A stretch of 64,000 bases of DNA from a virus. The translations under genes and the position numbers were made by a program. Below, one piece after another: positions 7,685 to 54,694 of the stretch (the first letter of the stretch is position 1; each line of letters starts with the position of its first letter). The stretch spans positions 2,763-66,762 of the IMG/VR virus record IMGVR_UViG_3300042556_001316. The stretch is one strand, 5' to 3'. The notes under the pieces are model-generated. The model had not been told where the DNA came from and did no database searches. It worked only from the letters and a program-made list of their open reading frames with translations.

Positions 7685-7870
7685 TTAATCCTCTTCATCT
7701 TCGGGAGGCGCGAGGTCTATTTGGATAACAGATAGTATCTTTAAGTCCTTGTATTTTTGTAGCACATCAGACGTTGAAACGGCATAAACCAGCTTGGTCA
7801 TTTTGGTTCCGTCCTTGTCAAAGAATATGCGGTACGTTTTCATCAGTTTTGCCATTTGCCTTTTGGACAA
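7685..7870 (-). CDS. hypothetical protein
   Basis: Last ORF of the - strand run; overlaps the upstream stop. Confidence 0.55.
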   Translation of the reverse strand: MSKRQMAKLMKTYRIFFDKDGTKMTKLVYAVSTSDVLQKYKDLKILSVIQIDLAPPEDEED

Positions 7871-8067
7871 CCATCTGCCCCTTTTGGTGAGAAAACTTTT
7901 TTACTTGTTGTGCAGCCACATACTTCACAATAGTCCCGTAATGTACCCTGAACCCAGTGTTCGCAATCAATACAAGTTAAGAGTCTTTCTTGCGCAAGCT
8001 GGCTTTGTTCTTCTGTTGGATTGAAGGAAGCTGTGTACGATAGAAATATTTCTTTTAACTTGTTCAT
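7843..8067 (-). CDS. small Cys-rich (zinc-binding) protein
   Basis: CxxC...CxxCGC...CP-GKW; probable start MNKLKEIF at 8067. Confidence 0.7.
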   Translation of the reverse strand: MNKLKEIFLSYTASFNPTEEQSQLAQERLLTCIDCEHWVQGTLRDYCEVCGCTTSKKVFSPKGADGCPKGKWQN

Positions 8068-8924
8068 AAGAATAAATTGGTATAATCGGAGTGGTTGCCC
8101 CAATAATCATGAGTTAAAGATAAATTATCTTTGCGATATATTGAGTTATGGCTGGTAAAATGTATGCCATGATTGATATGGATAGCTTGATTTTGGCAGT
8201 TCCATTGGGTTCTATTCATGGTTTGCGTTTCAATCATACCGCTATTGGTACGCAAGGCATTGGGTAGAATGGCCAAACAATGCTCAATGGCATCATCAAA
8301 TCTCATAGTCATTTGGTGAAACGGCTCATCATTTTGGCCTCTCTCTTGCCAGCCATTGATACAAACGCCCCCGTAATTCATATTAGTAAGAACGCTGCCT
8401 CTATCAAAATCAGGGAAATCAAAGTAACCTTCGGGGTACATTACATCATGCTCTAAAAATGAAACGTAGTCATACTCTCCTGTTTCTTTGGCTGCGTAAA
8501 GACATTGCATAATTTGAAGCAACTGATTAAGATGTGATTGGGATTGGTACCAGCTTCTAACTTGATAGAAAGGGTTTTCCGGCATAGGCTCCCACATACA
8601 AGTTACAATGTCTGCTACTCCATTACTGGCTTTCTTAATTGTATCTAATGATTTATAGATTGAGGGCCATATCTTTTTATTGTTGTTATTGGAATAGAAT
8701 ATGCCCAATTTTCTGCTTTTGGACTTTGGGTATACAAATACACTACCTTCCCTTACACTGAATAAATTGCCGTCTATATCCAACTCCAAGTACTTTACCT
8801 GACCAACGGCTGGATCACCTATAATATCATTATTACACCTTACTACAAGCTTATCTGATACTACTTTATCTCTAATTAATTGAGTACAATCTTGACCTCC
8901 GTATGTTGCTTTATTTATGATCAT
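8064..8924 (-). CDS. lectin-like N-terminal domain + GT-A glycosyltransferase
   Basis: N-terminal ATYG...NDIIGDPAVGQVKYL resembles a SUEL/Gal-lectin fold; C-terminal YVSFLEHDVMY is a DxD-like motif. Confidence 0.65.
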   Translation of the reverse strand: MIINKATYGGQDCTQLIRDKVVSDKLVVRCNNDIIGDPAVGQVKYLELDIDGNLFSVREGSVFVYPKSKSRKLGIFYSNNNNKKIWPSIYKSLDTIKKASNGVADIVTCMWEPMPENPFYQVRSWYQSQSHLNQLLQIMQCLYAAKETGEYDYVSFLEHDVMYPEGYFDFPDFDRGSVLTNMNYGGVCINGWQERGQNDEPFHQMTMRFDDAIEHCLAILPNALRTNSGMIETQTMNRTQWNCQNQAIHINHGIHFTSHNSIYRKDNLSLTHDYWGNHSDYTNLFL

Positions 8925-8925
8925 A

Positions 8926-9438
8926 TTATCTTTTTGCGTGCATTATACCCATTTGATTAATATCTGTACAGAACCAACCAAATTGATTAGTTGCAAATAT
9001 TTCAAACCCTAATTCAGTTAATTTCTTTTCTAGTATCTCTTTGCATGCAGGATTATGGTATTCAACCGCTATCTCCTTTACTGATTCAAATTGTTCAGCA
9101 GTAATATCCTTCATGTGTTGCTCATGGCCTTCTATATCCATCTTGATTAGCTCTGGCTTATACTCTGTAATCAATCCCAGTAAATCATCAAAATTAGAAA
9201 TAGTTTTACAAACAAAAGTATGCTCAGGGAAAGTTGCATTTAGCTTTTCAATTTCTTGGCATGATGCGTCTACGCCAATTACTTTTTTAGCTCCTCTATT
9301 TATAAAGTATTGCGGAGTTGATTCAAATGGCTGGAACAACCAACCACAACCTAAATCCAACACTACCTTACCTTCTACGTTTTGAATGTCGTTCCAATGC
9401 TCTAATGGATTTTCCGACTCTACTACTTTTGTTGTCAT
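8926..9438 (-). CDS. FkbM-like SAM-dependent methyltransferase
   Basis: VLDLGCG motif I, LIKMDIEGHE, IAVEYH. Confidence 0.85.
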   Translation of the reverse strand: MTTKVVESENPLEHWNDIQNVEGKVVLDLGCGWLFQPFESTPQYFINRGAKKVIGVDASCQEIEKLNATFPEHTFVCKTISNFDDLLGLITEYKPELIKMDIEGHEQHMKDITAEQFESVKEIAVEYHNPACKEILEKKLTELGFEIFATNQFGWFCTDINQMGIMHAKR

Positions 9439-10379
9439 AATAAAACTGATTTTTTAGCTGTTTCTTGTATAATATCCCAGTATTTCTTACTGGCCGTTCC
9501 TTCGTTTATATTTAATGTTGCACTATAGGGCAACTGGTTCATGTACTCTGCTTTGTAGAATAAGCCACCGGCAGATGTAACAACACCGGCATTGTGGAAT
9601 ATATTTAACCTATCCCAATCCGCTTCGGTACTTGTACCCCATGAAAATTCTAGTTCTGGGTGGCAAATCGTTTCTGCTCCACGCTTCCAGCCATTCCATA
9701 ACACCGCCCACATATCTGCGCACCATATCTGTAATTCATGATGTGTTGGGTCTAATTGCTTCTTCTCATTATTAAGGTGAGTTACTTCATTAAATAATCT
9801 TTCGCAATCTTTTTCAACGTCCGCCCAAAACTGAGCATTGATACCTTTCATTAAATATTGCGCACCGATTGAGTTAAGCTCATTATCTTTTATTAATGAT
9901 TCTGGTATGTCTACTATCTCACACATCTTATCCATTACGTCTTGACCTTTGCCTAATATGTAGCTATGGGCTATGTACCAACGGCAGTCAGATCCATACC
10001 ACTTATCATCTTGTAGGAACTGCTCCCAGTTTATCTTTTTGGTAAAAGCTATGTCGCAATCATGATAAAGAACCGCTTCTTGCTCTATGGATTGATTTTG
10101 TTCAAAGTGCTGCTTTAATATGTTAGGACGTATTGAAGATATGTAGTGCCTAGTTTCTCTGGTATCAGAATAAAAAAAGAACCTTGCTGGATAATTGGCA
10201 GCCAACTTGGTCCACTCCTCCGGAATAACATCATTTATCTTCCAACAAACAATATCTATCATGTTAGGATTGATACCCATTTCAATAAAGTTATTTATCA
10301 TAACTTCTACTTGCCACGCATAATAAAGGGAAGTTGGTTGAGCGCAAATGAATCTTAACTTCATGTATTTTTTTTCCAA
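9435..10379 (-). CDS. glycosyltransferase, peptidyl-serine galactosyltransferase / Hyp-arabinosyltransferase-like
   Basis: YYAWQ, YISSIRP, HDCD (DxD), WCADMW follow the order of SGT1/HPAT motifs. Confidence 0.65.
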   Translation of the reverse strand: MEKKYMKLRFICAQPTSLYYAWQVEVMINNFIEMGINPNMIDIVCWKINDVIPEEWTKLAANYPARFFFYSDTRETRHYISSIRPNILKQHFEQNQSIEQEAVLYHDCDIAFTKKINWEQFLQDDKWYGSDCRWYIAHSYILGKGQDVMDKMCEIVDIPESLIKDNELNSIGAQYLMKGINAQFWADVEKDCERLFNEVTHLNNEKKQLDPTHHELQIWCADMWAVLWNGWKRGAETICHPELEFSWGTSTEADWDRLNIFHNAGVVTSAGGLFYKAEYMNQLPYSATLNINEGTASKKYWDIIQETAKKSVLL

Positions 10380-10414: not shown

Positions 10415-10771
10415 TTAGTGCTTAACTATTAGCTGCTTCTTGTCTATGAATTTGTATATAAACTCAGCTATATGTCCTGATAACCATGCTCCAGCTTCAT
10501 CATCTACAATACCTCTGTCACTTTTTATTACATTAACTATGTGGTAATTTTCATGTGATAGGGTATTGTGGCTTAAATACTTTTGTTCTATAATCATGTA
10601 GTAGACATCTATGTCTGGGGTAATAACTGTACCTTCTGCATCTCCTTCAAACATCTGCTCCATTTTATGCTTTTTGTATACTTTATTAGCTTCATTGATT
10701 AATGAATCTGTAATAATAAGTACAACCTTGCAACCATAGGTAGATATTTTCAATGTAGAAGTTAGTTTCAT
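10415..10771 (-). CDS. HExxH-motif protein (putative metallopeptidase)
   Basis: LSHENYH followed by DDEAGAW. Confidence 0.55.
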   Translation of the reverse strand: MKLTSTLKISTYGCKVVLIITDSLINEANKVYKKHKMEQMFEGDAEGTVITPDIDVYYMIIEQKYLSHNTLSHENYHIVNVIKSDRGIVDDEAGAWLSGHIAEFIYKFIDKKQLIVKH

Positions 10772-10992
10772 TGGTCATTATTTATTATTCTATTAATATA
10801 CCAAACTGCCTTTTTTAAATCTTCCTTACCACCTTTTCGTTTCCACCTCCACAAATACTTTATGGCATTGCCAGTAGCAAATGCTTCATCTCCCTCCAAC
10901 CCCTTTACTGCTTCCTCAATTGCGTCTATGCACTCTATCTTTCCAGCGTTATAGTGTGCTGGGTGGTCCACTTTAGATGATACGTCCATCAT
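10768..10992 (-). CDS. DUF3310 family protein
   Basis: VDHPAHY...IECIDAI...GNAIKYLWR...EDLKKAVWY. Confidence 0.9.
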   Translation of the reverse strand: MMDVSSKVDHPAHYNAGKIECIDAIEEAVKGLEGDEAFATGNAIKYLWRWKRKGGKEDLKKAVWYINRIINNDQ

Positions 10993-11971
10993 GAATAGCT
11001 ATATTATTTACCTTAAAATCTCCGTTCTTTTCTACTAATATATGAGCAAATCCTAAATTGTGTTTTGTTCCATGTGGATCATAGTCCGGAGCTAGTGTAC
11101 AAAGACAACCAACCGACCATGTGCCAATGGTTTCTCCTTTCAATGTTTTCTCAACATGATGGCTAGTGGTATGCACATGACCAATGATAGCATTTGATTT
11201 AACGCGAAGGAATAAACCTCTGGCTGCGTTTACGGGAGCAAATACTCCACGAATCATTGTATGACCATGATGCATCTGTAACTTACCAGCCATTAAAACT
11301 ACATGCTCAGCAAAGAACTTTACACCCAACTCATCAAGCTTCATTCTTTGTGGCAAATGGTAATACTCATCACTGAATAAGATCGGAGCCTTCTTCATTA
11401 GATAGCGCTTAATCCACGCGTCATGATTACCTTCAATCCAATAGAACTTGGCTTTTGGGAATTGATATTTTAGATATTCTATAAATTGTTTTGCATATTG
11501 AAACCACGTTCTAACATCATCTAGGCCCGGCGGTGGCGAATCATGGCTTGTAAACGGAGTATTATCCAGTATGTCACCTCCTAGAACAATGCAGTTTATA
11601 CCATTCTCTTTGCCATATTTAACGGCTAATTCTATGGCTTCATTGTCTTGGTTAGGAATATGGACATCAGAAAGCCAAAGAATGTTATTGCACTCTTTGG
11701 GTAGTATCTGAAATTCTCTTTCCTTGCAATTTGAAGGAGGTAGTTGTGGGTTGTGTTCCATTACGTTTTTTGTATGTTTTCTATGTGTTTCGCCGTTAGC
11801 ACCAGTTATCTGCCTAATCATCATTCTAGCCGCTTCAGGATTATCAAACAAATGAGGATACCTTTCAAATGCTATTTTTCCTAAATTAGATTTAGAACTA
11901 TTAGGGAACTCCAATAAAAGCTCTCTTAATAATCTATTTTTCTGTGTTGGACCTGTATGCTGATTTGCCAT
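10973..11971 (-). CDS. calcineurin-like metallophosphoesterase
   Basis: SDVH, GGDILD, GNHD, HHGH, GHVH motifs. Confidence 0.9.
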   Translation of the reverse strand: MANQHTGPTQKNRLLRELLLEFPNSSKSNLGKIAFERYPHLFDNPEAARMMIRQITGANGETHRKHTKNVMEHNPQLPPSNCKEREFQILPKECNNILWLSDVHIPNQDNEAIELAVKYGKENGINCIVLGGDILDNTPFTSHDSPPPGLDDVRTWFQYAKQFIEYLKYQFPKAKFYWIEGNHDAWIKRYLMKKAPILFSDEYYHLPQRMKLDELGVKFFAEHVVLMAGKLQMHHGHTMIRGVFAPVNAARGLFLRVKSNAIIGHVHTTSHHVEKTLKGETIGTWSVGCLCTLAPDYDPHGTKHNLGFAHILVEKNGDFKVNNIAIHDGRII

Positions 11972-12633
11972 TATGCTAAATATTTAAAAGAATATCCCTT
12001 TAATTTTTTCCTTCCGCCCAATCCTCTAGCAATTAAAGAAGCTTTGCCACTATATTTTACAGGATTCAATCCAACTGAACGCAGGGCTTCAGAAATAGAA
12101 TGATACACACCAAGAGATTCATTAGTATCACAATTTATGATTTCAGTTTTTTTAGCTTGTCCTGATTTTATACTTGCTAATGATTGCTTCTTTTTTGTTT
12201 CTTCTGATTTCTTTTTAGATTCAAAAACACCTCTTTTTACAAGAGTTTCATAAGTTTGTTTTATACCAAATCTATGGTTTTTATCACCTAGCTTTTGCTC
12301 TCTCAATTTTTGACGTGTTTCATTTGATCTAATACAATTCCAAATTCCATCCCCACCATCAGTCATATTACATAAAGATCCTGTTTTTAAATCAATTCTA
12401 CCATATAAATATATAAACTCACTTTCTTTTTCAGCCGCTTGACTTTTCGTTAATCCATCAAATAAAATCTCAACTTCATAAGAAGATTTTAAAACAATAT
12501 CATTCCATATTTTATTTCTTTTAGAACAATGGTTTTCATAGGCTCTTGCATGATTGTTTTTATTACCTATTCCTATATAGAAAGGTTCATTTTTATCAAT
12601 TCTTATATGCCTATAAACGTACCAGTTATTCAT
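11971..12633 (-). CDS. GIY-YIG-type homing endonuclease with NUMOD-like tail
   Basis: WYVY...FYIG, NMTDGGDG, SEETKKK repeats. Confidence 0.8.
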   Translation of the reverse strand: MNNWYVYRHIRIDKNEPFYIGIGNKNNHARAYENHCSKRNKIWNDIVLKSSYEVEILFDGLTKSQAAEKESEFIYLYGRIDLKTGSLCNMTDGGDGIWNCIRSNETRQKLREQKLGDKNHRFGIKQTYETLVKRGVFESKKKSEETKKKQSLASIKSGQAKKTEIINCDTNESLGVYHSISEALRSVGLNPVKYSGKASLIARGLGGRKKLKGYSFKYLA

Positions 12634-15638: not shown

Positions 15639-16979
15639 ATGCCAACTAGCTTTCAATTTTTCAAGCAAGAAGTCAGGGATTACATTGTAGATAACATAGC
15701 CGTAAACAAAAAGATATTAGATGTAGGGGCTGGTATTGGTACCTATTCTGATTTGCTTAAAAACTATGGTTATTACATGGATTGCGTAGAGATATACGAA
15801 CCCTATGTAGTTAATTACCAATTAGATAAGAAGTACAACAATGTTTTTATACAGAGTGTAGTTGGCTTCCATTTTGACTATTACGAGTTTATTATCATGG
15901 GTGATGTACTGGAACATTTGTCTGTGGAAGATGCGCAAAGCATAATCAAAAAGATAGTCCATAGCGGTAAGCAGTGTCTGGTGGCAGTACCTTTTATGAT
16001 GGAACAGGGGGAACATGAAGGCAATGTCCATGAAACTCATTTGCAGCCTGATTTAAGTCCGGCGGTCATGGAAATCAGATACCCAGAACTTCAACTACTC
16101 TATGCCAATCAATACTATGGCTACTATGTAAACAAGAAACAAAAGCATAAAAGAGCCTATTTATTGTACGCTGATGAGTCCTATGCCGACTTGGTTCAAG
16201 TATGCGTTGAATCAATCCGTAAGTTCAGCGAGATACCAATCCTAGTTTATATGCTCAACTCTGATAAAAAGATTGAAAATACGGAAACAATAAGATGGGA
16301 TTGTGATGTAAAGCACCTGAAACAAAGGGCTGATTACATTGATAGATCCAACAAAAGCATCTATAAACTACTTATACAAAGACCTTTAATAACTAAACAT
16401 GCACTGGAAAACTATGCTGAAACGATTGCGTATGTGGATTCTGACTCTGTGGCTAGTCCATTTGTTGACAACATCTTTACTTTCTATAATGAAGAATCTA
16501 GTCACCCCTATTTTACAGAAGGTATCTATGAGTATCTTATGGTCAATGGTAGAGGCGGCGCTGAAAGCAGGGCGGATTTAAGCACTACATTAGAAGCTCC
16601 AGCCTGTGAGCTATTCAACATAAACCAGTATGTCCGTAACAGATACAGGCAAACAGGATATTATGTTGCAGGGCAAAATACCATTGAATTTTTAGATGAA
16701 TGGTACTGGATGTGTAACCACCCTAAAGTATTAAAGAACCACAACTATTATGCTCCGTTCCACGAAGAAACAATACTGCAAGCCCTTCTGTATAAACGTA
16801 TGACGTTTTCAGGACTGCCATACTGCTACATCAATGGACTACATAAAGACCTAGAATTTACTGGTCGTGATAACTTAATAGGACCATGGATTAAAGTACC
16901 TTCACATAAAGAACATCTCCTATTCTATCATGGAGAAAAAAACATTCAAAAGATTAAAGAATTTATAGAAACACTATGA
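15639..16979 (+). CDS. class I SAM methyltransferase + GT-A (GT8-like) glycosyltransferase fusion
   Basis: ILDVGAGIG and GDVLEHL; C-terminal YVDSD and FHEETIL. Confidence 0.8.
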   Translation: MPTSFQFFKQEVRDYIVDNIAVNKKILDVGAGIGTYSDLLKNYGYYMDCVEIYEPYVVNYQLDKKYNNVFIQSVVGFHFDYYEFIIMGDVLEHLSVEDAQSIIKKIVHSGKQCLVAVPFMMEQGEHEGNVHETHLQPDLSPAVMEIRYPELQLLYANQYYGYYVNKKQKHKRAYLLYADESYADLVQVCVESIRKFSEIPILVYMLNSDKKIENTETIRWDCDVKHLKQRADYIDRSNKSIYKLLIQRPLITKHALENYAETIAYVDSDSVASPFVDNIFTFYNEESSHPYFTEGIYEYLMVNGRGGAESRADLSTTLEAPACELFNINQYVRNRYRQTGYYVAGQNTIEFLDEWYWMCNHPKVLKNHNYYAPFHEETILQALLYKRMTFSGLPYCYINGLHKDLEFTGRDNLIGPWIKVPSHKEHLLFYHGEKNIQKIKEFIETL

Positions 16980-19030
16980 GAATATTATTTTTAGCTCCGC
17001 ACTTATCAACAGGGGGGATGCCCCAGTTCCTTTTGAAAAGACTTCAAGGATTGAGAAACCATACCAATAATGAATATTATGTGGTAGAGTATCAATGCCA
17101 TAGCCTAGATTATGTGGTTCAACGTAATGCCATAAAGGATTTAGTTGGTAGTAATTTTACTACCCTTTATGAGAATAAGATGGAGCTATTTGATGTAATA
17201 GAAAGCTTCCAGCCTGATATAATCCATATAGATGAAATGTCTGAAAGATTGGATAGAAAAATGGTAAAGAAGCTTTACAACCCAGATAGAAAGTATCGCA
17301 TTGTAGAAACCTGCCATGACATTTCCTTTGCTCCAAACAGCAAGTTATTCCACCCAGACCTATATTCATTCTGTACTCCGTATCATGAAGAAACTTTTGC
17401 TGATTTGGAATCCAAGTATGTTACAATACTTTATCCAATAGATGAAATGAATCTTACCAAGTTCAAGACTATCTGGCAAGATGAATTAGGCTTTGATAGA
17501 AACAAGAAGCATGTGCTAAATGTTGGCTTATGGACTCCGGGCAAGAATCAAGCTGAAGGAATAGAAATAGCTCGTAAATACCCTGATATGATGTTTCACT
17601 TTGTGGGTAATCAGGCTGGCAATTTTAAGATTTACTGGGAACCATTGATGCAGGATTTACCACCCAACGTAAAGGTATGGGGAGAGCGTACTGATATTGA
17701 CCACTTCATGATAGCATCAGATCTATTTATGTTTAATAGTACATGGGAATGTAATCCATTAGTACTTCGTGAAGCCATTGGATATGGGCTACCTATTGTT
17801 GCGCGGAATCTTCCTCAGTATGCCGGAATGTATGATAAATACACATACTCAATAGATGCTGATTTAGAACTGATAGCTAAGTACAATAATATTACATACG
17901 ATATACCAAAAGACAATACCACATGTGACTTTGCAATAGCGCATCAAGTAGCCTATGAAAAGATATTAGAACTTCCAGCACAAAAACAAAAGGTCCGCAT
18001 CTTACAAAACTTCATCAACCACCCTTTCCTTGAAATAAAAGGAGAAAGCGATAGTGAATTTGATGTTAGATTCTATGATGAAAATGATGTATGCCAATAC
18101 CAAAGTGTAATCAAAAGCAATAGCTGGGTAAGGCTTAACAGACAATATTGTACCAAATGGAAAACGTATGTATATCAGGACGGAGAGTTAATCTATGAAA
18201 ACGTATTGGATCTGCATGGTAAAAGGGTATTCATATCAATAGAAAGTAGCGCACTTGGAGATACTATTGCATGGGTTCCGTATGCTTTAGAGTTCCAAAA
18301 GAAGCATGGATGCAAAGTCGTGTTGTCCACTTTTCATAATAAAATACTGGACTATCCTGAACTTGAATTAGTAGAACCCGGCAGCTCTGTTAACTGCTAT
18401 GCCATGTATAAGATTGGTTGGCACTATGACACTAGCAGAGAGCCTGAATTACCAAACACAATACCACTACAAAAAGCAGCGTGTAATATTTTGGGATTAA
18501 AATACACCGAAATTCGCCCCAAATTATTTACCAAGAGGAATTGCCCATTGCATGACAAATACATCACTATTGCCACTAATTCTACCACAGGATGTAAGTT
18601 TTGGGTAAGAGAAGAATGGCAGAAACTAATTGACCATTACACCGAACAAGGTTACAAGGTATACAATGTTTCCAAAGAAGTTAATCCATTTGATAATTGC
18701 CCACAGATACCAGATACATCAATGGAATCAACAATGGATTGGATATATCATAGCATGTTCTTTGTAGGGTTAAGTTCAGGGCTTAGCTGGTTGGCGTGGG
18801 CTTTGGGTAAACCAGTTGTATTAATCAGTAATTTTACTGAATTTGACCATGAGTTTCTTACCAACTGCATACGAATCACAAACGAAAAAGTATGTCATGG
18901 ATGCTGGAACAAACCAGAAATAAAATTTGATAAAGGCAATTGGAATTGGTGTCCTTACAATAAAAACTTTGAGTGCCAGACTTCAATCACCGCAGATATG
19001 GTAATCAATAGAATTAGTCGTTACTTCTAA
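16976..19030 (+). CDS. GT4 glycosyltransferase fused to TibC/AAH-like protein O-heptosyltransferase
   Basis: GT4 motifs GGMPQ, KNQ, ECNPLVLREA; C-terminal ALGDTIAW, FVGLSSGLSWLAWA, CHGCWN..CP..C Cys cluster. Confidence 0.85.
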   Translation: MRILFLAPHLSTGGMPQFLLKRLQGLRNHTNNEYYVVEYQCHSLDYVVQRNAIKDLVGSNFTTLYENKMELFDVIESFQPDIIHIDEMSERLDRKMVKKLYNPDRKYRIVETCHDISFAPNSKLFHPDLYSFCTPYHEETFADLESKYVTILYPIDEMNLTKFKTIWQDELGFDRNKKHVLNVGLWTPGKNQAEGIEIARKYPDMMFHFVGNQAGNFKIYWEPLMQDLPPNVKVWGERTDIDHFMIASDLFMFNSTWECNPLVLREAIGYGLPIVARNLPQYAGMYDKYTYSIDADLELIAKYNNITYDIPKDNTTCDFAIAHQVAYEKILELPAQKQKVRILQNFINHPFLEIKGESDSEFDVRFYDENDVCQYQSVIKSNSWVRLNRQYCTKWKTYVYQDGELIYENVLDLHGKRVFISIESSALGDTIAWVPYALEFQKKHGCKVVLSTFHNKILDYPELELVEPGSSVNCYAMYKIGWHYDTSREPELPNTIPLQKAACNILGLKYTEIRPKLFTKRNCPLHDKYITIATNSTTGCKFWVREEWQKLIDHYTEQGYKVYNVSKEVNPFDNCPQIPDTSMESTMDWIYHSMFFVGLSSGLSWLAWALGKPVVLISNFTEFDHEFLTNCIRITNEKVCHGCWNKPEIKFDKGNWNWCPYNKNFECQTSITADMVINRISRYF

Positions 19031-19486: not shown

Positions 19487-19876
19487 TTATGGAGCCTCGG
19501 TTGTCGTGGTTGTATCAGGAGCTTTTGTAGTCGTAGTTGTGGTTGGGAGCCATGGGAGCGGAAGTGTCACCTCCACAGGGTTAATCTGTAAAGCAATATT
19601 AGCCTCAAGACTTGCCTGCATAGCATCTACAGGAAGAATTGCTTCTAACCATCCAATTACTTCGGCTTCTGTTACATCTGCGTAAGGGATGAAGTTTTGT
19701 GGATTTGGTTGTGTTACACTAGCAACAGAGTATGTATCTGCAAAATAAACCTTACCGTCATGCTCTTGTGTTGCGTTGTATCTATAGTGTATCTGATTGA
19801 TAACGTCAGGTAAGCCCTCAGATTCAACTGCACAATTGAGTTCGCTGATGGTCCATGAAAATACTGTTGTTGCCAT
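19487..19876 (-). CDS. tail fibre-associated protein with C-terminal poly-Thr tail
   Basis: FIPYADVTEAEVIGWL...LPLPW, then TTTTTTKAPDTTTTTEAP. Confidence 0.75.
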   Translation of the reverse strand: MATTVFSWTISELNCAVESEGLPDVINQIHYRYNATQEHDGKVYFADTYSVASVTQPNPQNFIPYADVTEAEVIGWLEAILPVDAMQASLEANIALQINPVEVTLPLPWLPTTTTTTKAPDTTTTTEAP

Positions 19877-19888
19877 TTTTGTTTTATT

Positions 19889-22800
19889 TTATTTGTTTTT
19901 AATTAAATCAAGTTCTGCCTTCAATTCCTTAACGGCATTTACCAAAGTTACAAATATACCTTCAGTTTCAAGTCCTAAGTATTCTGAGTTTTCATCTAGT
20001 TTTCTAGCTAATTCAGGCATTACTTCCTTTACTTCTTGCGCTATGAAACCATATTTTAGATTTGTAGCGTTATCATTATAATAGAATGATTTAGGATTAA
20101 GCTGCATCACCTCATTAAGACCATAGGTTAAAGGCTTAATGGTATTCTTAAGTCTGTAGTCTGATGGGTTGGTGTTTGTTAGGAAGCCTGCATTTGAATA
20201 AACAGTTCCTGTACCTAATGCTCCAACATATACACTTCCAAATGCACCTATTCCATTTACATAGAACTTAGCTCCTTGAGTGGTTGCTGTTGCGTTTACT
20301 AATACATCTCCTGCGGATGTTATGCGCATACGTTCGGTGTTACCTGTTCTTATATGAAAATCACTTACACTTGTTGTTCCTACAAAAGAGTCGCTTGAAA
20401 CTCCACACTCAAGCATTACTACTGTACCAGCAGGGTTTGTTATTCTTACACCTTTTGTGCCATCTACTGATGCTGATGCAACTGCTAAACTTAATAAAGC
20501 CGTTGGTGATGTAGTACCTATACCTACGTTACCCCCACTTGTTATGCGCATACGTTCGCTAAATGATGCAGAAGCACCAGCACTTCCAGATGCAGCATTA
20601 GCCCAAAATATTGAACCATCAGAATCAAACCCCATTCTACCAATTCCTCCCGTACCTATGTATCTATATGTAGAGCCATCATAATACACATTATTCGTTA
20701 ATTGAGAATATACGCCTCCGTTTGTATGTAACGATGCGTTTCCAACTTGTAATACATTAGGGAATGTAGCTGTGTTCCAAGCACTTGGCGTAACTCCTAT
20801 ACCTACGTTACCCGAACTTGTTATGCGCATACGTTCGCTTCCACCAAATGGGGTAGTTGCTCCTGTGTTAAATATTATATCTCTATTTTCAACAGAAAAT
20901 TCTAATCCATTGCCTGAACCTTTATTTACTCCAATCCACGCTTGGTCTCCACCCGCACCGCCACTTGTTATTTGTATTGCAGTTCCAACTCCCGAAGATG
21001 AGCCAAGAGTAGTTTCTAAATGTAACAACTGACTTGGCGATGTAGTACCTATACCTACGTTACCTGAAGGTGTAATTATTAAAGGTGTAGCAGTACCACC
21101 ATTAGATGCACTAATTTGAAACTTTAAACCACCATAAGTAGATGTATTAGCCCCCCAAGCATTAATTTTACCATAACCACTTTCAAAGGCAATACCTACT
21201 TTACTTGTTTCATTAGATAAAAAATCAGAACCAAATAATCCACTTGTTGCCGTTACACTACTTGAGAATGTAGCTGCTCCTGTAGAGGCTATTGTTAAAG
21301 CAACCGCAGGATTGCTTCCAGAAGTAGCAGTTAAAAATCTCATTTGACTTTCTGCACCTGCATCAGCATTTGAAACAATATCCATAGTCCTTGTAAACGG
21401 ACTTCCTGATGCACTATAATATGATGTTATGATTGCACCTAAATCTTTTGAATATGTTGCTAAAGCTGAAGGGTTAGAAGTATCGTAAATTCTTAATGCA
21501 CCGCCTGACTTATATATGTCTAATGTATATCCCGGAGAAGTAGTACCAATTCCCAAATTACCTGAAGCGTTTAACGTCATTGCTTGGGTAAAGGATATAG
21601 CGTTACCTGCCGTTCCTGAAGGAGCTTGAAACCATTCGTGAGCATTTCTACGAATTACATATTTAGCCGCTTCTGCACTTGCGTAGTAAGTTTCAGCATT
21701 ACTTGAATTTACATAAGCATTATTAAATAAGTTAATTACATTATCATTTGTTTGGGCAGTAAAAGCACCTGCATAAGAAGTGCCTGAAAAATTACCACCT
21801 AATTGCATTACTTTATGTACTACGAACCACGCACTCGGTGTAACTCCCAATCCTAAATTGCCTTTGTAATCTAATGTTAAAGTTCTTAACCACCCACCAT
21901 TATATGTATAAAAATCAACTCCTTGATAACCAGAAATAACTCCTGATTGTCTTGTTCCATCTCCACCTATACTTAGTCCATATCCACTTACTGCTGCATT
22001 AATATTAACATAAGCAGTAGTACCTGTTAAATTAGCTCCTGATGTTTGTACATTCAATCCTGTTACATTCATTGTTGTACCACCAATAGCAACTGATGTT
22101 CCATTATCAAACACTAAGCTATTACCTATTGTACTTGTACCTGTAAACTTAGGTAGGTAGTTTGTAGTACCCGTTCCTGTTACTTGATTGGTAGGAGTAA
22201 ATCCAGATGTACCCGAAGTAGCAGATGTCCCAGACGTACCAGATGATCCAGATGTACCATTTACCGCAGAAGTACCACTCGTACCTGTCGTACCTGATGA
22301 ACCCGAACTGCCGCTCGTACCACTTGAACCTGACGTACCTGTTGTACCAGATGTACCAGACGTACCCGTACTACCACTAGTTCCTGACGTACCCCCCGTT
22401 CCATTTGTACCCGATGAACCTGAAGTTCCTGACGTACCTGATGATCCAGATGTTCCGTTAAATCCTGATGTGCCGGACGTGCCTGTCGTACCTGATGTAC
22501 CAGTCGTACCCGAACTTCCAGAAGAACCAGATGAACCGCTCACTCCCGAACTACCAGAGGTACCAGAGGTGCCGTTTACACCACTACTTCCACTTGTTCC
22601 TGTCGTACCAGAGGTGCCTGAACTTCCTGAGCTTCCACTTGTTCCAGATGTTGTACCTACAGCTATACCAACTTGTTTTGTTACAACAATAACTGATGGA
22701 GCCGCTGGCACCACATAAGGAGTTGTCTGAGCCGGAACCGCTGTTACTTGAACATGGTCACTGTCAGAAGCAAAATATATTTCTAAATAATCATTAGCAG

Positions 22801-37312: not shown

Positions 37313-40300
37313 TTAACAAGATGTTTCGGTTGTTAATGTACCATTACCTCCTGTAACTAACCAGTTATTTACTCCATTAGAATAATAATTATTAGGTACA
37401 ACAGTTGTTAGTGCCGAGTCTTGATAAACTACTACACTATTAGTTAATACTGAAGATGCTGAATAATAGTTTAAAGGTGTGACTGCAAAATCAACACAAG
37501 CTAAAGCGCCGCTAATTGAATCTACCCCTAGTGGGAAAGTATAAAAAGACAAAGTTGTTGTTGTTGTTGTTGGCGGCAAAGTAGTAGTAGTACTTGTACT
37601 AGTCGTAGTAGTAGTTGGAGCCTCCGTTGTAGTTGTTGTTGTACTTGTTGTTGAGGTCGTTGTACTAGTCGTTGTAGCAGGAGCAGCCGTTGTAGTTGTA
37701 GTTGTACTAGTAGTCGTTGTAGTTGGCGCCGCAGTAGTCGTAGTGCTTGTAGTGGTCGTAGTAGGAGCTATAGTTGTTGTTGTCGTTGGCGCAGCAGTTG
37801 TTGTTGTCGTTGTAACACATTGAACAAAATTACCAGCAGCAACATTAAGATTAAAATATACAGTCGTATTTGAGTTTATTGAAGGAATTATTACAGGATT
37901 TGATTTACCACATTTAGATTCAAAATCTCCACTGGTATTACCTACTCCATATTGAATATCATTACCAGAAGCATCAGTTATAGTAATATACGGTGTAGAT
38001 CCTTGGTTAAATGTTTTTCCAAAAAAAAGATCATAAAGCGGATAGTTACTAGTATTAAATGTAGACTGTTGCCATAATGTCCAACTCAAACCCAAATTTG
38101 TACTATACCATAATTGTATTAATTGTCCAGTATTAGAAAGTTCTGATATTCTCCAATCAATATCAAAAAATATACTTGATGTCGTAGTGGTAGTTATAGG
38201 CGCAATCGTAGTTGTTGTAGTACTGGTTGTAGTCGTAGTTGGAGCAGCCGTAGTTGTGGTAGTCGTTGTTGTTGTACTAGTCGTTGTTGTTGTAGTGGTA
38301 GTAGGACCTGACGTTGTAGTAGTTGTAGAAGGAGGTAAATACCTATTAATTTCCTCCATTGCAATAATATACTTATTGGTATTAGCATCAAATACACCAT
38401 ATATACATGGATTACCAGAATATATCGCGCCTGTCGCAGGTACACCATTATTTAAACTCTGTCTATAAGCAGCAAGTGTAGCTACAAAAAAAGCATTTGT
38501 TTTATTAGTAATACTAATAGGAGTTATTCCATCTTGTGCCAATCTACATACGACACCCCTAAAATTATCTACAAAGTAATCTGCAAAGTTATTCCATGCA
38601 AGACTTGTAGCTGCATCACCAATTCCATAATCACCAGCATAATACTGAATCTTATTAATTAACTGATTGCTATTAGCTTGTAATGGGTTCCCAGTTACAT
38701 CTTTTACAATTTGAGTTAAGATAGGAACATTACCCACTTTAAAGTTTTGGTAAACCTTTAAATATCTATCTCTAACATGCAACCTTAATACATCACCAAA
38801 CGACCTATCATACTCATCAAAATCTTCATAAATGAATCTATTTGTAGCATTAAGATTAGTATTTGATTGATATGCTTGTCCAAATCTAATTAATGTAGGA
38901 AAATATGTTTGACTAGCATTTTCATCTATTACTGAAGCTCTACCATTGCTATTTGTAATCAAATTATATGTATCATTAAAACTACTTTCTATAATTTCAA
39001 TTTCAGAACCTTTTAAAACTTGAAACTCAAATGTCATTGGCTGAACAAATATGCTATTAGAACCAACTGCATCATTTGTAGACTTAGCTACAATATACAC
39101 TTTACCTGTTTGAGGAACAGTAATTTGCTTATCAATAGTAAATGTAGTATCTACGTTTTGTTTTATATCGTTTACTTCAATTGGAAGCAATGAAATAGTA
39201 ATTTTAGGCGATAATGGAACTAAATTAGTACAAATAAGAGCATAAACAGAAAACTGTGATGTCCCATCAGATGCCATATTAAAAGTACCCTTTATAGAAA
39301 CAGGTTGCTGTAAAGTTGTAGACTTATTGTAGAAAAAATAACCACTATCAGACCAAACGGGATAACTTGATCCTGTTAAAGCAACATCAACATTTGGCTG
39401 TGTTTGTATTCTATATGATGTATTATCAATAGTTGTATCAACTGTTATTGGGAATGATACACTTCTTGAAACAAAAGCACCAGAAACTCCAATATTGAAT
39501 ACTCCCGATGTATATTCATATTTATTACTATAAGGAACCCTTCTCAATCTATAAAACAAGTCACCATTATTAAGAGCAAGAGTTGTTCCTCCGTTAGGAA
39601 GCTTTGTTAAACCAAAATGATACCTTGTTGGTAAACCAGCATCACCAATACCATATTGCTTACCAAACTCATAAAAAAATCTTTGAGTTGAAGAAGCATT
39701 GTTTGTGTAATTATACAACAATATTTCATAATGCTGCCAATCTTCAGTTCCGGGGAACTGAAATCCAATACTAATATCATTAGTTGGGTATCTTAATTTA
39801 AGAAAATTACCAACCGCCGTATTTGTATTATTATTAGCTGTAGTAGTATATTCAATAGTAGAAAGCGTACCAACTATTTCATAATCAAATTGACTTGTAA
39901 TATCCTGAGCTGCGCCAGTAACATCATATCTTCTTAAGAATTTAATTCTATCTCCCTCTGTGTAGTTATAAGAAACAACATTTTGGGTTGAACTAATTTG
40001 GTCATTATATTCTTGAATATTACCAATACCTATGTAAAGAAATTTTGTATTATCTACTCCATCAGGCAATGACACATAAGCTGAATCACTTACCCAGCAA
40101 AGACGCTTGTTGTAAGTTGTATTATTAGATCTAACAATCTGATAATAAGAAGCATATAATGGAGGCCTATTTAAAATAGATAAGTTTACTAATGGGAAAT
40201 CATCTGTAAGAAATCTTGGCGGAGTATTAATTACGGCACTTGGTGATGTTTGTGTACCAATCGTTCTACCCTGTGCATCAAAATATTGAATACCATACTG

Positions 40301-41803
40301 ATAACCACCATTCCAAACATTTGCAAATCTAGTATTATCGTTATCTAACGCAGGTATAGTAGCAAAAGCTGTTGATGTTAAAACAAATCCACCTGCATAA
40401 GACATTGTTAGCTTATTGCCAACTAATGAAACTTGAGTATATCCTTTTAAAACCATAGCGGCAGATATGCCAGCTAATATATCACTTACTAAATAATTAG
40501 TGGTAAGTCCTGTCGTTGCATAAGATGTACTTAAATCAGTTCCGCTTGCGCTAAAAGAATTTATAAAATAAGTACCTGCTGCGTTATTTAATTCTGTAAC
40601 ATTTCCATTTACACCGTTTGCGCCTGTACCATAAAGATATATATTCATTGTAGTACCAGATCCGCTATCGTTACCATTTACAGAAGCAAAGAAAGATAAG
40701 CCACATTGGTCGTAATAATAACTTGATGCGGTTGAATATGTAGATGCCTGTAAATCAACATTTGTTTTATCGTAACCCTCTAAAATACCTGCATATAATA
40801 ACACGTTACCATTTGCAAGCTCAGATGCATTTGCTCTTTGGGGCACCCAATCCTGCAACTGATCCGCTTCTAAAACATCAATTTGATTATATATTGAATC
40901 ATTATAAAATCTAAAATAATTAATATCATTATCATTTATTGAAAGCGCAGCTTTATCAAAAGACTTTATTAAATACCAGTCACTAGTACCACTACTAAAT
41001 GTTTCTCTAAAAGCAACTTCAATAGCTTTAACATTAGGACCTCCTGTTGAAAAATTAACAGCAATTCTTGAGTTATAAGTATCAGCTGGGATTGGGGGAT
41101 TAGGACTTATATCATTTGTCAGCGTTAATGATGGCTGTTGAGGCAAAGGAACTATGCTCTTTGAACTCCATACAGACTTTTCAAAATTATCGTAAACATA
41201 TCTATAACAAAACTGAAATAATTTGTTTCTTAAATTATTTATAGTAATTGTTGTGTCATTCTCATAAGTAACTTGAGGAGGCATTACGGGCGGAGCTTTT
41301 GCAACTAGCAAATAGTCAGCAACCCAGTTATTGCCATATAAATTATTAACATTTATAGTTCTAGGAGGATTATATCCATCATTAAAGAATATTAAATCTC
41401 CTTCTAAATCTCTGTAATATATATTAATAGATAAAACTTTGTAAGAAGGATTAAAATTTAAAATATCAACCCCGTTACTATTTGTTTTACTTTGAAGAAC
41501 CGTTACAATTGATTGTGTGCTTAAATCATAATAAGCAATAGTATGAAAACCATCACTATTCCATATAAAATAATAAGCCCTATTTCTTACTTTATCTCCG
41601 TAAAACCCAATAACCTTACTTACTCCACTTGGCAAACTGTAGCTTATTATAGTATTTCCTAAAATATTAGAAACTACTTTATCTTGCCCACGACCTTGTG
41701 CGTCTTTTGTGACGTTTAATGCATCTATATAATCATTATTACTGACTCTGTATTCTGCATCATCTAGGTTTAATTTTCCACTAAAAGGAGTATTTATTAT
41801 CAT
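37313..41803 (-). CDS. tail muzzle/stabilisation protein, N-terminal part with Thr-rich extension
   Basis: GKLNLD..YIDALN, YAGDYGI, YFVD..RGVVCRL..DGITPIS; poly-Thr tracts near the C-terminus. Confidence 0.8.
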   Translation of the reverse strand: MIINTPFSGKLNLDDAEYRVSNNDYIDALNVTKDAQGRGQDKVVSNILGNTIISYSLPSGVSKVIGFYGDKVRNRAYYFIWNSDGFHTIAYYDLSTQSIVTVLQSKTNSNGVDILNFNPSYKVLSINIYYRDLEGDLIFFNDGYNPPRTINVNNLYGNNWVADYLLVAKAPPVMPPQVTYENDTTITINNLRNKLFQFCYRYVYDNFEKSVWSSKSIVPLPQQPSLTLTNDISPNPPIPADTYNSRIAVNFSTGGPNVKAIEVAFRETFSSGTSDWYLIKSFDKAALSINDNDINYFRFYNDSIYNQIDVLEADQLQDWVPQRANASELANGNVLLYAGILEGYDKTNVDLQASTYSTASSYYYDQCGLSFFASVNGNDSGSGTTMNIYLYGTGANGVNGNVTELNNAAGTYFINSFSASGTDLSTSYATTGLTTNYLVSDILAGISAAMVLKGYTQVSLVGNKLTMSYAGGFVLTSTAFATIPALDNDNTRFANVWNGGYQYGIQYFDAQGRTIGTQTSPSAVINTPPRFLTDDFPLVNLSILNRPPLYASYYQIVRSNNTTYNKRLCWVSDSAYVSLPDGVDNTKFLYIGIGNIQEYNDQISSTQNVVSYNYTEGDRIKFLRRYDVTGAAQDITSQFDYEIVGTLSTIEYTTTANNNTNTAVGNFLKLRYPTNDISIGFQFPGTEDWQHYEILLYNYTNNASSTQRFFYEFGKQYGIGDAGLPTRYHFGLTKLPNGGTTLALNNGDLFYRLRRVPYSNKYEYTSGVFNIGVSGAFVSRSVSFPITVDTTIDNTSYRIQTQPNVDVALTGSSYPVWSDSGYFFYNKSTTLQQPVSIKGTFNMASDGTSQFSVYALICTNLVPLSPKITISLLPIEVNDIKQNVDTTFTIDKQITVPQTGKVYIVAKSTNDAVGSNSIFVQPMTFEFQVLKGSEIEIIESSFNDTYNLITNSNGRASVIDENASQTYFPTLIRFGQAYQSNTNLNATNRFIYEDFDEYDRSFGDVLRLHVRDRYLKVYQNFKVGNVPILTQIVKDVTGNPLQANSNQLINKIQYYAGDYGIGDAATSLAWNNFADYFVDNFRGVVCRLAQDGITPISITNKTNAFFVATLAAYRQSLNNGVPATGAIYSGNPCIYGVFDANTNKYIIAMEEINRYLPPSTTTTTSGPTTTTTTTTSTTTTTTTTTAAPTTTTTSTTTTTIAPITTTTTSSIFFDIDWRISELSNTGQLIQLWYSTNLGLSWTLWQQSTFNTSNYPLYDLFFGKTFNQGSTPYITITDASGNDIQYGVGNTSGDFESKCGKSNPVIIPSINSNTTVYFNLNVAAGNFVQCVTTTTTTAAPTTTTTIAPTTTTTSTTTTAAPTTTTTSTTTTTTAAPATTTSTTTSTTSTTTTTTEAPTTTTTSTSTTTTLPPTTTTTTLSFYTFPLGVDSISGALACVDFAVTPLNYYSASSVLTNSVVVYQDSALTTVVPNNYYSNGVNNWLVTGGNGTLTTETSC

Positions 41804-48191: not shown

Positions 48192-48602
48192 TTATGGGGC
48201 AGTCGTTGTTGTTGTAGTAGGCGCTGCCGTTGTTGTTGTTGTTGTTGAAGCAGAATTAATTAATTGCAAATACTTTCCAATAATTCCAAAAGCAACAATT
48301 CCACTACTTGCTAATGATGAAACATCTGTCTTGGTAGCTAAATTAACACCTAAAACAGGAGTCCAATATAATGGAACTTCTGGAGCAGGTAATAATTGAC
48401 CTGTAATAGATCCATCGTCATTTGTTGTATTAAAAAGAATCGTAGTACCCGGATTTACCACTTGAACTACAGCTGAGTCCCAACCAGATAAATCTTGGTA
48501 AAAACTATTATTAGCATTAAAAGAATCAGTTGCATCTACAACTGTACTAATTTTAGAACTGAATTTTTGAAGTCTTATTAAAATCTTGCTTGCTGTTGCC
48601 AT
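48192..48602 (-). CDS. putative head decoration protein with poly-Thr tail
   Basis: Ends STTTTTTAAPTTTTTTAP. Confidence 0.65.
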   Translation of the reverse strand: MATASKILIRLQKFSSKISTVVDATDSFNANNSFYQDLSGWDSAVVQVVNPGTTILFNTTNDDGSITGQLLPAPEVPLYWTPVLGVNLATKTDVSSLASSGIVAFGIIGKYLQLINSASTTTTTTAAPTTTTTTAP

Positions 48603-54316: not shown

Positions 54317-54694
54317 ATGGCAAATCATTTATCAGTTTATGTTTATCGTAGAAATCAATACGATTTAACAAATCCTAACGGTACTGCTGCAACTAGCGGT
54401 GTTTTATTTTCTTTACCAACAGCCGACTTACAGGTTCAACCATCTACAGTTGTAGCAAATGGTGTACAGATGAACTCTTTAATTCTCATCTACCCTAGTG
54501 GTTTAAATCAACCAGCTGAAAAATTATACAGCAATGCAACTGTTGCTGGATTAATTGCAGCTATTAATGGTAGTGGTATTGCTACAACTACAACTACGAC
54601 TACAACAACATCTACCACAACTACAACAACAGCGGCTCCAACCACAACTACAACAACAGCGGCTCCAACCACAACTACAACAACAGCAGCTTAA
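54317..54694 (+). CDS. putative virion decoration protein with poly-Thr tail
   Basis: Paralogue of 54731..54994 plus a (T6AAP)n tail. Confidence 0.75.
   Translation: MANHLSVYVYRRNQYDLTNPNGTAATSGVLFSLPTADLQVQPSTVVANGVQMNSLILIYPSGLNQPAEKLYSNATVAGLIAAINGSGIATTTTTTTTTSTTTTTTAAPTTTTTTAAPTTTTTTAA
54614..54687 (+). repeat. 27-bp tandem repeat, about 2.7 copies
   Basis: ACCACAACTACAACAACAGCGGCTCCA. Confidence 0.9.

Follow-up and report, generated by a model that had tools for sequence, protein, structure and literature searches.

Genes for a phage glycosyltransferase family adjoin genes for poly-threonine-tagged virion proteins: a probable virion O-glycosylation system

Glycosylation of phage particles by enzymes that the phages themselves encode has so far, in the excerpts of the literature consulted, been shown mainly in mycobacteriophages. 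Che8, Corndog and Myrna are described as using their own glycosyltransferases (GTs) to glycosylate the capsid and other virion proteins, with methyltransferase genes also implicated, and this glycosylation is described as altering antibody recognition of the virion (PMC12363180; PMC12894461). Here we examine a candidate for a comparable system in a 64,000-nucleotide stretch of viral DNA (positions 2,763 to 66,762 of IMG/VR record IMGVR_UViG_3300042556_001316; hereafter the window), centred on a gene whose 314-residue product we call GT314. The window covers nearly all of the record, which is 66,762 bases long and rated 100% complete; it has a GC content of ~29-44% and recognisable portal, large terminase, tail fibre and primase/helicase genes, and 20 kb of it, compared by megablast, gave no match to cultured phages. 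We propose that GT314 most likely puts the first sugar on threonine (Thr) or serine (Ser) residues of poly-Thr tracts in virion proteins, yielding a mucin-like O-glycan coat. The gene in question is:

9435..10379, minus strand: GT314, a single-domain GT-A glycosyltransferase of family phrog_4417, with the DxD motif at D107/D109 and invariant H262 and K276.

Like the mycobacteriophage systems, this one would pair a phage GT with Ser/Thr-rich extensions on virion proteins (GT314 and four tagged genes in the window; tail-tube and capsid tails in its relatives), here recognised from the genes alone. The glycosylation sites of mycobacteriophages are reportedly C-terminal extensions of the capsid and tail-tube subunits, as Freeman et al. 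are said to have found in 2023. Unlike those systems, the GT314 family comprises other enzymes, the proposed acceptor is a poly-Thr tag, and the gene for the GT in most cases adjoins the acceptor gene or is fused to it. The hosts here are Bacteroidota and Bacillota, and none of the 77 phage records that carry a GT314 homologue is from a mycobacteriophage, so the mycobacteriophage system appears to use other enzymes. GT314 itself would be a cytoplasmic, metal-dependent (DxD) GT-A enzyme with a nucleotide-sugar donor that glycosylates the hydroxyls of Thr (and Ser) in TTTTTT-AAP-like C-terminal tails or inter-domain linkers, and this would take place before or during particle assembly, so as to leave the coat on the particle.

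The initial annotation had picked out four motifs in this gene by eye, and all of them are present, in the same order, in the 314-amino-acid (aa) open reading frame (ORF) at 9435..10379 on the minus strand: YYAWQ (residues 19-23), YISSIRP (79-85), HDCD (106-109) and WCADMW (219-224). These are not chance strings, since they are conserved across two alignments of relatives. In the first (A1; GT314 and 57 diverse short relatives at 33-68% identity) the consensus YxxWQVEV / YxSSIRPH / FYHDxDI / QxWCADMW forms the conserved core, and the second (A2; 50 longer relatives) is alike. Further conserved motifs in A1 are GGAQY, IFHNAGV and FxK; its invariant columns include Y79, D109, Y135, G172, Q174, M223, H262, G265 and K276, and W22, D107, W219 and W224 are each at least 90% conserved. 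The TTG start codon listed for GT314 is probably too early, because database copies are 309 aa long and the Atlas copy begins at residue 6, where there is an ATG; the true start is probably this ATG at 10364, five codons past the TTG, for a coding sequence (CDS) of 9435..10364 and a protein of 309 aa.

GT314 matches phrog_4417, a family of function unknown, over nearly its whole length (E 5.5e-65, 220 bits; residues 9-307 against profile positions 2-291 of 293), and neither Pfam nor NCBIfam assigns it to a family. The family is large, with 2,832 clusters at 90% identity reaching E<=0.001, and 860 representatives at 50% identity at the same threshold, 371 of them at E<=1e-30; every named copy that we looked up is annotated 'hypothetical protein'.

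The AlphaFold2 model of GT314, made with A1 as input, has a GT-A fold (mean predicted local distance difference test score, pLDDT, 97.5; predicted template-modelling score, pTM, 0.93), with a Rossmann-like alpha/beta/alpha architecture and the DxD motif after the fourth strand, HDCD following strand 102-106. An exhaustive VIA-align search of 48,161 PDB representatives placed Skp1 alpha-galactosyltransferase (14.2), LgtC (13.9), the catalytic domain of UGGT (13.8) and WbbM (13.4) at the top, then LARGE1 (12.9), a GT8 protein (12.6) and GlyE (12.5), with the capsid-glycosylating chlorovirus enzyme A64R lower down (11.3). Foldseek concurs, with UGGT at 7.7e-7, and in a viral structure library two family members come first, followed by GT8-annotated viral proteins at ~1e-7. 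A sequence-profile search of the PDB with GT314 returned nothing real, the one match being a spurious hit to TAL repeats. Since the nearest folds are all retaining enzymes, we infer that GT314 would retain stereochemistry as well.

Membership in GT8 itself was considered and rejected, as GT314 has no match to Pfam Glyco_transf_8 at E<=10 and the HxxGxxKPW that GT8 proteins carry at the C-terminus is absent; the GT314 family has IFHNAGV...FxK there. Sequence identity between GT314 and the enzymes of GT8/GT24 (glycogenin, LgtC, GlyE, UGGT) and Skp1 alpha-galactosyltransferase is just 8-14%. An hhalign comparison of A1 with six genuine GT8 proteins from bacterial genomes gave a probability of 16.6% (E 0.0015), the alignment being confined to the N-terminal 109 columns, in which the two DxD motifs line up. 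A64R of chlorovirus PBCV-1 is a viral glycosyltransferase that serves the major capsid protein; it differs in belonging to a eukaryotic giant virus, in linkage and glycan, and in being without a poly-Thr tag. The PBCV-1 glycan to which A64R relates is N-linked.

The proposed acceptors are encoded elsewhere in the window. TTTTTTAAP tags, which the initial annotation had described, do exist, in 4 of the 83 genes called in the window, three of them small (125-136 aa, with C-terminal tails) and one of 1496 aa with internal linkers:

19487..19876, minus strand: candidate acceptor of 129 aa, just downstream of the tail-fibre gene, ending TTTTTTKAPDTTTTTEAP.
37313..41803, minus strand: candidate acceptor, a 1496-aa virion structural protein (phrog_14478, E 1.1e-54) with Thr-rich linkers at residues 1159-1211 and 1331-1418.
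48192..48602, minus strand: candidate acceptor of 136 aa, directly after the portal gene, ending TTTTTTAAPTTTTTTAP.
54317..54694, plus strand: candidate acceptor of 125 aa, in which Thr runs separated by AAP make up the final 36 residues.

The Thr codons of these tags are mixed (38 ACA, 34 ACT, 16 ACG and 5 ACC), which points to selection at the protein level. The tail-fibre protein upstream of the first of these genes (19889-24403, minus strand) has 1504 aa and collagen-like repeats, and matches PHROG tail-fibre families at E values down to 5.9e-46; a further long ORF, of 2641 aa, lies at 26190-34115 on the minus strand.

The main evidence for a link between GT and tag comes from the relatives of GT314. 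By means of a simple non-overlapping gene call, we compared the 80 best IMG/VR loci (the viral set) and 80 loci from bacterial genomes or metagenome-assembled genomes (the bacterial set). A tagged ORF lies within 10 kb of the GT in 61 of the 80 viral loci, and its position is directional: the gene directly upstream of the GT, which shares its strand and usually lies 0-100 bp from it, is tagged in 54/77 viral loci, the gene downstream in 0/78, and all other genes in 32/1282. In the bacterial set 21 of 77 upstream genes are tagged, among them those of eleven Bacillota loci that have a GT 28-32% identical to GT314 right after a tail-tube-like protein of 204-227 aa that ends in poly-Thr, one of these proteins matching Pfam Phage_TTP_1, and a 605-aa upstream protein of a Bacteroidota-type phage has an N-terminal Phage_tail_2 tail-tube domain. 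Once the tags are masked, the upstream proteins that carry them, 75 over the two sets, sort into 15 groups without detectable similarity between groups; judged from these sequences, the common denominator of the upstream proteins is the tag and not the protein.

The same link appears at the level of whole records. Runs coding for six threonines (Thr6) are found in 30 of 38 GT-bearing viral records, including all 15 of those at least 90% complete, and the eight records without such runs are all fragments (1-54% complete). For a random control, an arbitrary 15-mer was used to draw 49 viral contigs, each 16 kb or longer; Thr6 runs occur in four of them (2 of the 14 near-complete ones) and the GT in one, which is one of the two records rich in Thr6 runs and has such a run on the strand of the GT, ~240 bp upstream of it. 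When records were picked only for a T6AAP-coding pattern (49 of 79 new loci listed), the GT was present in 17 of the 49, and in 5 of the 7 that are near-complete. In two near-complete records with T6AAP tracts, G447 and G454 (behind loci L205 and L212; 96% and 100% complete), no phrog_4417-type GT is found: either another enzyme serves their tags or the tracts are unglycosylated linkers.

Cultured phages show the same arrangement. By tblastn, homologues of GT314 are found in 77 GenBank phage records, all annotated as hypothetical, from phages of Lactobacillus (23), Enterococcus (21), Staphylococcus (11), Lactococcus (8), Clostridium (3), Lacticaseibacillus (2) and Chryseobacterium, Arcanobacterium and Levilactobacillus (one each), with six named only 'Bacteriophage'. 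Twelve of the 77 were examined, and in each of them a Thr-rich tract is encoded upstream of the homologue, at most two genes away. Gp50, the major tail protein of Enterococcus phage phiFL1A, ends GTTTTTSTTTTTTSSTTTTTTTQASSK; the GT, gp51, comes directly after it, and a second Thr6 run lies at the 3' end of gp45, the gene that follows the scaffold gene. Gp18 of Clostridium phage phiCTP1, at the tail-tube position, ends EETTTTTNAPITTTTTTV, and the major capsid protein of Enterococcus phage 4995_1 ends GTTTTTTKPTTTTTTTQA. In Lactobacillus phages 521B and ENFP1 an immunoglobulin-like-domain protein (so annotated in 521B only) ends in (TTVxP)n repeats, Lactobacillus phage Iacchus has a 128-aa protein made mostly of Thr-rich repeats, and Chryseobacterium phage MA9V-3 has a 428-aa protein with the internal linker PPTTTTTTSTTTTTTSSTTTTTTAAP. 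In Firmicutes phages the GT gene sits between the gene for the capsid or the tail tube and whichever structural gene comes next.

Some of these phages carry the tag in a second reading frame. In Enterococcus phages Planchet and nattely the annotated capsid gene is untagged at its end, and the space between it and the GT is taken up by a Thr-rich frame that overlaps the 3' end of the capsid gene (L400:3200-3510 and L406:3170-3510, respectively); in Arcanobacterium phage TPWB06 and Staphylococcus phages vB-SscS-F1 and PT1-4 the major tail proteins end Thr8-9-Pro and are followed by an overlapping Thr-rich ORF (L403:3220-3426 in TPWB06, L404:2474-2710 in PT1-4). From their sequences, these overlapping frames look like programmed frameshift extensions of the capsid or tail protein, which, if true, would put the glyco-tag on only a fraction of the subunits. 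In PT1-4 an ORF that by eye resembles a homing endonuclease (L404:2817-3497) sits exactly between the tagged tail gene and the GT. The window has an ORF of 220 aa at 11971-12633 on the minus strand, with sub-threshold matches to NUMOD3 and NUMOD1 and an N-terminus that by eye is GIY-YIG-like, features which suggest that it too may encode a homing endonuclease.

In five genomes of cultured phages that carry the cassette, no GT2, GT1 or p286-like gene was found (p286 being the second glycosyltransferase of the window, described below), the Pfam searches having recovered their targets in 14/14 control genomes and the p286-profile search having been run without a positive control. This supports the view that the GT314-type enzyme makes the peptide-sugar bond itself. 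The suggestion of the initial annotation that GT314 is a plausible initiating enzyme for the TTTTTTAAP tags is thus one that comparative genomics supports strongly, through the directional, cross-phylum adjacency of the GT to Thr-tract proteins and through its standing as the sole GT found with these three profiles in the five phages.

In the window GT314 heads a translationally coupled operon of four genes on the minus strand, the other three being:

8926..9438, minus strand: MT170, a small S-adenosylmethionine-methyltransferase-like protein, with weak Pfam methyltransferase matches (E 0.007-0.05, below cut-off) and a match to phrog_8156 (E 0.0023).
8064..8924, minus strand: p286, a second glycosyltransferase, in which a small beta domain at the N-terminus precedes a GT2-like GT-A domain (residues ~68-282) that has an invariant E158-H159-D160.
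7843..8103, minus strand: a DUF6171-like zinc-ribbon protein (Pfam DUF6171, E 0.016, below cut-off; phrog_13558, E 3.3e-7).

The four genes run in the order GT314, MT170, p286 and zinc-ribbon, with tight junctions: the start of MT170 overlaps the stop codon of GT314 (ATGA), MT170 and p286 are separated by a 1-nt gap, and p286 and the zinc-ribbon gene again share an ATGA, the likely start of the latter being the ATG that overlaps the p286 stop codon (CDS ~7843-8067). In the proposed scheme p286 would extend the glycan that GT314 begins, the small methyltransferase would methylate it, and the zinc-ribbon protein would be an accessory of the operon. Of the 80 viral loci, 39 have p286 downstream of the GT, 18 have the methyltransferase and 18 the zinc-ribbon protein. 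In 41 the GT occurs without p286, which speaks for an initiating role of the GT. Upstream of the operon on the minus strand, past a 118-aa ORF at 10415-10771, are genes for a DUF3310 protein (10768-10992, E 7.1e-18) and a calcineurin-like metallophosphoesterase (10973-11971; phrog_221, E 2.4e-35); these probably lie outside the module, because they are found near the GT only in its closest relatives (10 and 12 of the 80 loci, respectively).

Natural fusions tie these proteins together. P0122 (687 aa) joins a GT314 domain (60% identity), a p286 domain (57%, E 2e-118) and a zinc-ribbon (49%, E 7e-25), and because it thus fuses three of the four operon proteins, we read the window as encoding, in separate genes, a two-transferase glycan-building module that is a single polypeptide elsewhere. 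DUF6171 is fused to the GT in 3 of 58 short relatives as well. Long forms are frequent, with 86 of the 150 best representatives exceeding 420 aa and the GT314-type domain N-terminal in most. The C-terminal Pfam domains of 50 long relatives are GT2 (11), Glyco_transf_7C (8), Glyco_tranf_2_3 (5), GT6 (3), GT25 (2), Gly_transf_sug (2), GT29 (1) and GT61 (1), and among the same 50 a methyltransferase domain and a radical-SAM/SPASM domain occur once each. In chromosomes of Chitinophaga, Pedobacter, Sphingobacterium, Mucilaginibacter and Niabella the domain is fused with a second GT in proteins of 481-903 aa, and at least three Bacteroidota genomes have two separate loci for such chromosomal fusions.

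Several observations weigh against the proposal that GT314 initiates glycosylation of the tags. The proposal draws on sequence, predicted structure and gene context, and the retaining stereochemistry on fold neighbours only, the profile-profile comparison with genuine GT8 being the low-probability one given above. In the window no tagged gene adjoins GT314, the nearest being ~9 kb off. When the GTs are clustered at 50% identity, 6 of the 27 informative clusters have a member with a tagged upstream gene. The Fisher p values for the association (7e-12 to 6e-3) ignore relatedness among the records, and we therefore rely rather on recurrence across phyla and on the fact that the upstream families are 15 in number and independent. 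Finally, tags occur without the GT in 2 of the 7 near-complete T6AAP-positive genomes and in 3 of the 4 Thr6-positive random records. Records of this last kind are what one would expect if the Thr tracts were plain flexible linkers or tails that are never glycosylated, their association with the GT arising from shared gene order or from the composition of the host phylum. Secreted proteins of Bacteroidota commonly have Thr/Pro-rich linkers, and kinship is frequent among the 80 viral loci, 46 of the 75 tagged upstream proteins of the two sets belonging to one homology group. Set against this, the same pairing is seen in Bacillota and Actinomycetota phages with wholly different structural proteins, Thr6 runs are present in all the near-complete GT-bearing genomes of the sample (15/15, against 2/14 at random), and the sole GT-positive random record has its tag immediately upstream of the GT; we regard unglycosylated linkers as a very improbable explanation.

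The fused chromosomal relatives raise a further difficulty: of the 45 from Chitinophaga, Pedobacter and Sphingobacterium that reach at least 450 aa, 42 lack a tagged gene within 8 kb. For the family as a whole, then, the acceptor is not poly-Thr, or at any rate not poly-Thr encoded nearby, and we take the link to the tag to hold for the single-domain, phage-type members. These untagged relatives would also fit a GT314 that acts on a non-protein acceptor, such as a glycopolymer of the host envelope (teichoic acid, lipopolysaccharide or capsule, with seroconversion or superinfection exclusion as models) or modified bases of phage DNA, with adjacency to the tag a by-product of position in the structural module. 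Phage-encoded GT-A enzymes that modify wall teichoic acid exist, and TarP is in the fold lists; DNA glycosyltransferases of phages are described in such literature as was consulted; and a glycerophosphodiester phosphodiesterase is the annotated product of the next gene in Lactobacillus phage Iacchus. A by-product of position would not, however, readily account for an adjacency that is upstream and never downstream (54/77 against 0/78), nor for 15 unrelated upstream families that share the tag only, in an arrangement that recurs across phyla at ~30% enzyme identity and that in Firmicutes phages sets the GT among the structural genes, between that for the capsid or tail tube and the one that follows. 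General family scans of the window brought no DNA-modification genes to notice beside GT314, and we set the DNA glycosyltransferase reading aside on gene context. A non-protein acceptor is in our judgement quite unlikely.

The phage also encodes what, from sequence, would be a second, independent protein-glycosylation module, composed of two genes:

15639..16979, plus strand: p446, 446 aa, with an N-terminal methyltransferase-like domain (Methyltransf_23, E 7.5e-6, 26.2 bits against a cut-off of 27; UbiG-like, E 1.3e-3).
16976..19030, plus strand: p684, 684 aa, with a GT-B (GT4-like) domain and an Aah/TibC-type protein O-heptosyltransferase domain (TIGR04414, E 5.6e-68; phrog_2170).

The end of p446 overlaps the start of p684. 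Residues 360-682 of p684 score 229.6 bits with TIGR04414, above the equivalog cut-off of 200, and also match Glyco_transf_9, and the N-terminal half matches Glycos_transf_1 (E 3.3e-11). The Aah/TibC autotransporter O-heptosyltransferases are cytoplasmic protein O-glycosyltransferases, which p684 resembles over those residues; they have a GT-B fold, belong to GT9 and are unrelated to GT314, and the p684 version differs from them in its GT4-like fusion partner and in being phage-encoded. Its targets may be the virion proteins on which GT314 would act, or other virion proteins.

An Aah/TibC-type enzyme in the same phage counts against GT314 as well, since p684 could be the enzyme that contacts the peptide. 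GT314 would then only extend a virion glycan, the peptide-sugar bond being made by the p684 domain, by p286 or by a host enzyme. In keeping with this, p684 lies above the curated cut-off of a family whose characterised members glycosylate proteins directly, and the top structural neighbours of GT314 include Skp1 alpha-galactosyltransferase, UGGT and LARGE1, which extend existing glycans and do not act on peptide. The adjacency of GT and tag nevertheless holds without p684, homologues of which stand beside the GT in 11/80 viral loci, and without p286, found in the 39/80 already mentioned; the five cultured cassette phages yielded no GT1, GT2 or p286-like gene; and in the fused relatives the GT314-type domain is mostly N-terminal, with classical extending GT families C-terminal to it. 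We consider a purely extending role for GT314 unlikely, and retain initiation on the Thr tracts as the preferred reading.

Beyond the tags, the initial annotation had taken the four motifs as a sign of homology to the plant enzymes HPAT (GT95) and SGT1 (GT96), for which it gave the series YxxWQ / YxxxN(K/R)P / DxD / WxxEMY. By analogy GT314 would have a similar task, as those enzymes put the first sugar onto a repetitive hydroxy-amino-acid tract of a structural protein; they differ in that their acceptors are hydroxyproline or Ser and the enzymes are Golgi-anchored, whereas the proposed acceptor of GT314 is Thr and its chain starts at a Rossmann beta-strand. GT95 and GT96 are said, in the part of the source consulted, to be related to each other and to be type II membrane proteins of the Golgi (PMC8012813). 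The GT314 model lacks such an anchor, opening with beta-strand 8-15 of the catalytic domain and forming one compact, high-confidence domain. GT95 is described, again in part of the source, as predicted to be GT-A-like and GT96 as predicted to adopt a new fold (PMC8476585); the former prediction agrees with the GT-A fold of GT314, and the latter, if correct, would argue against kinship of GT96 with a GT-A enzyme such as GT314.

Profile searches did not demonstrate this homology. Pfam PF23452 (HPAT; 307 positions, gathering score 23.9 bits) has no match to GT314 at E<=1 or E<=10, nor any to the phage genome at E<=10 in a search run without a positive control. There is no match at E<=0.01 among 108 relatives. 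PF23452 appears below threshold in 3 of 58 short relatives at E<=10 (best E 0.019), where no other catalytic family recurs: 20 noise families turn up once each, and the fused DUF6171 domain, like PF23452, in three relatives. It gave no match in a set of 10 short relatives and, of the 46 families that matched the 50 long ones, is not among the 25 listed. Against 50 GT-bearing viral records it gave nothing at the GT gene and one 11.8-bit match elsewhere. A search for prokaryotic PF23452 'bridges' in 5 family-carrying, 401 Bacteroidota and 401 second-phylum genomes found none, and is uninformative because no control was detected. Among the 30 nearest named ESM-Atlas clusters (neighbour scores 0.96-0.97), PF23452 occurs in 22, in 10% and 58% of the members of the two clusters printed, and another six carry DUF7164; we treat the PF23452 neighbourhood as a lead and not as a test. 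The DUF7164 lead was not confirmed, a Pfam scan of 10 divergent homologues from Bacillota, Saccharibacteria and Gammaproteobacteria having given no match to HPAT or DUF7164. GT314 thus resembles the GT95/GT96 enzymes in concept, and membership in their families is not supported by the PF23452 profile. We judge remote kinship possible but rather unlikely. The observation made in the initial annotation is confirmed, and its interpretation is supported in part, for the tags and not for homology to the plant enzymes.

In the literature searched, from which most subscription journals were absent, we found nothing on the GT314 family or on a phage cassette of poly-Thr and transferase, and the terms 'DUF7164' and 'phrog_4417' are unmentioned. 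What would be new is that the virion is O-glycosylated by an enzyme family both distinct and widespread, and that the acceptor tag is genetically encoded and can be recognised. A bolder, composite proposal, which we consider doubtful, is that a portable poly-Thr 'tag plus transferase' cassette occurs in phages of at least three phyla, on tail-tube, capsid, fibre and decoration proteins and sometimes on a frameshifted subset of them, and that phrog_4417 is in addition the prokaryotic and viral sister of plant GT95/GT96. Were both parts of it true, mucin- or extensin-like glycosylation of repetitive hydroxy-amino-acid tracts would be an ancient invention common to viruses and plants.

If GT314 does initiate glycosylation of the tags, an abundant family other than the mycobacteriophage enzymes glycosylates virions in phages of Bacteroidota, Bacillota and Actinomycetota, whose hosts include Enterococcus, Staphylococcus, Lactobacillus and Lactococcus, genera with phages that are used in therapy and are relevant to food fermentation. 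A simple sequence rule, a poly-Thr tail with an adjoining GT gene, would then predict which virion proteins are glycosylated and name a candidate enzyme for each, and a short encoded tag with a single soluble transferase would be useful for bacterial glyco-engineering. For the phages themselves, such a coat would bear on immunogenicity, on adherence to mucus and other surfaces, on the stability of the particle and on the interpretation of its cryo-electron microscopy structures.

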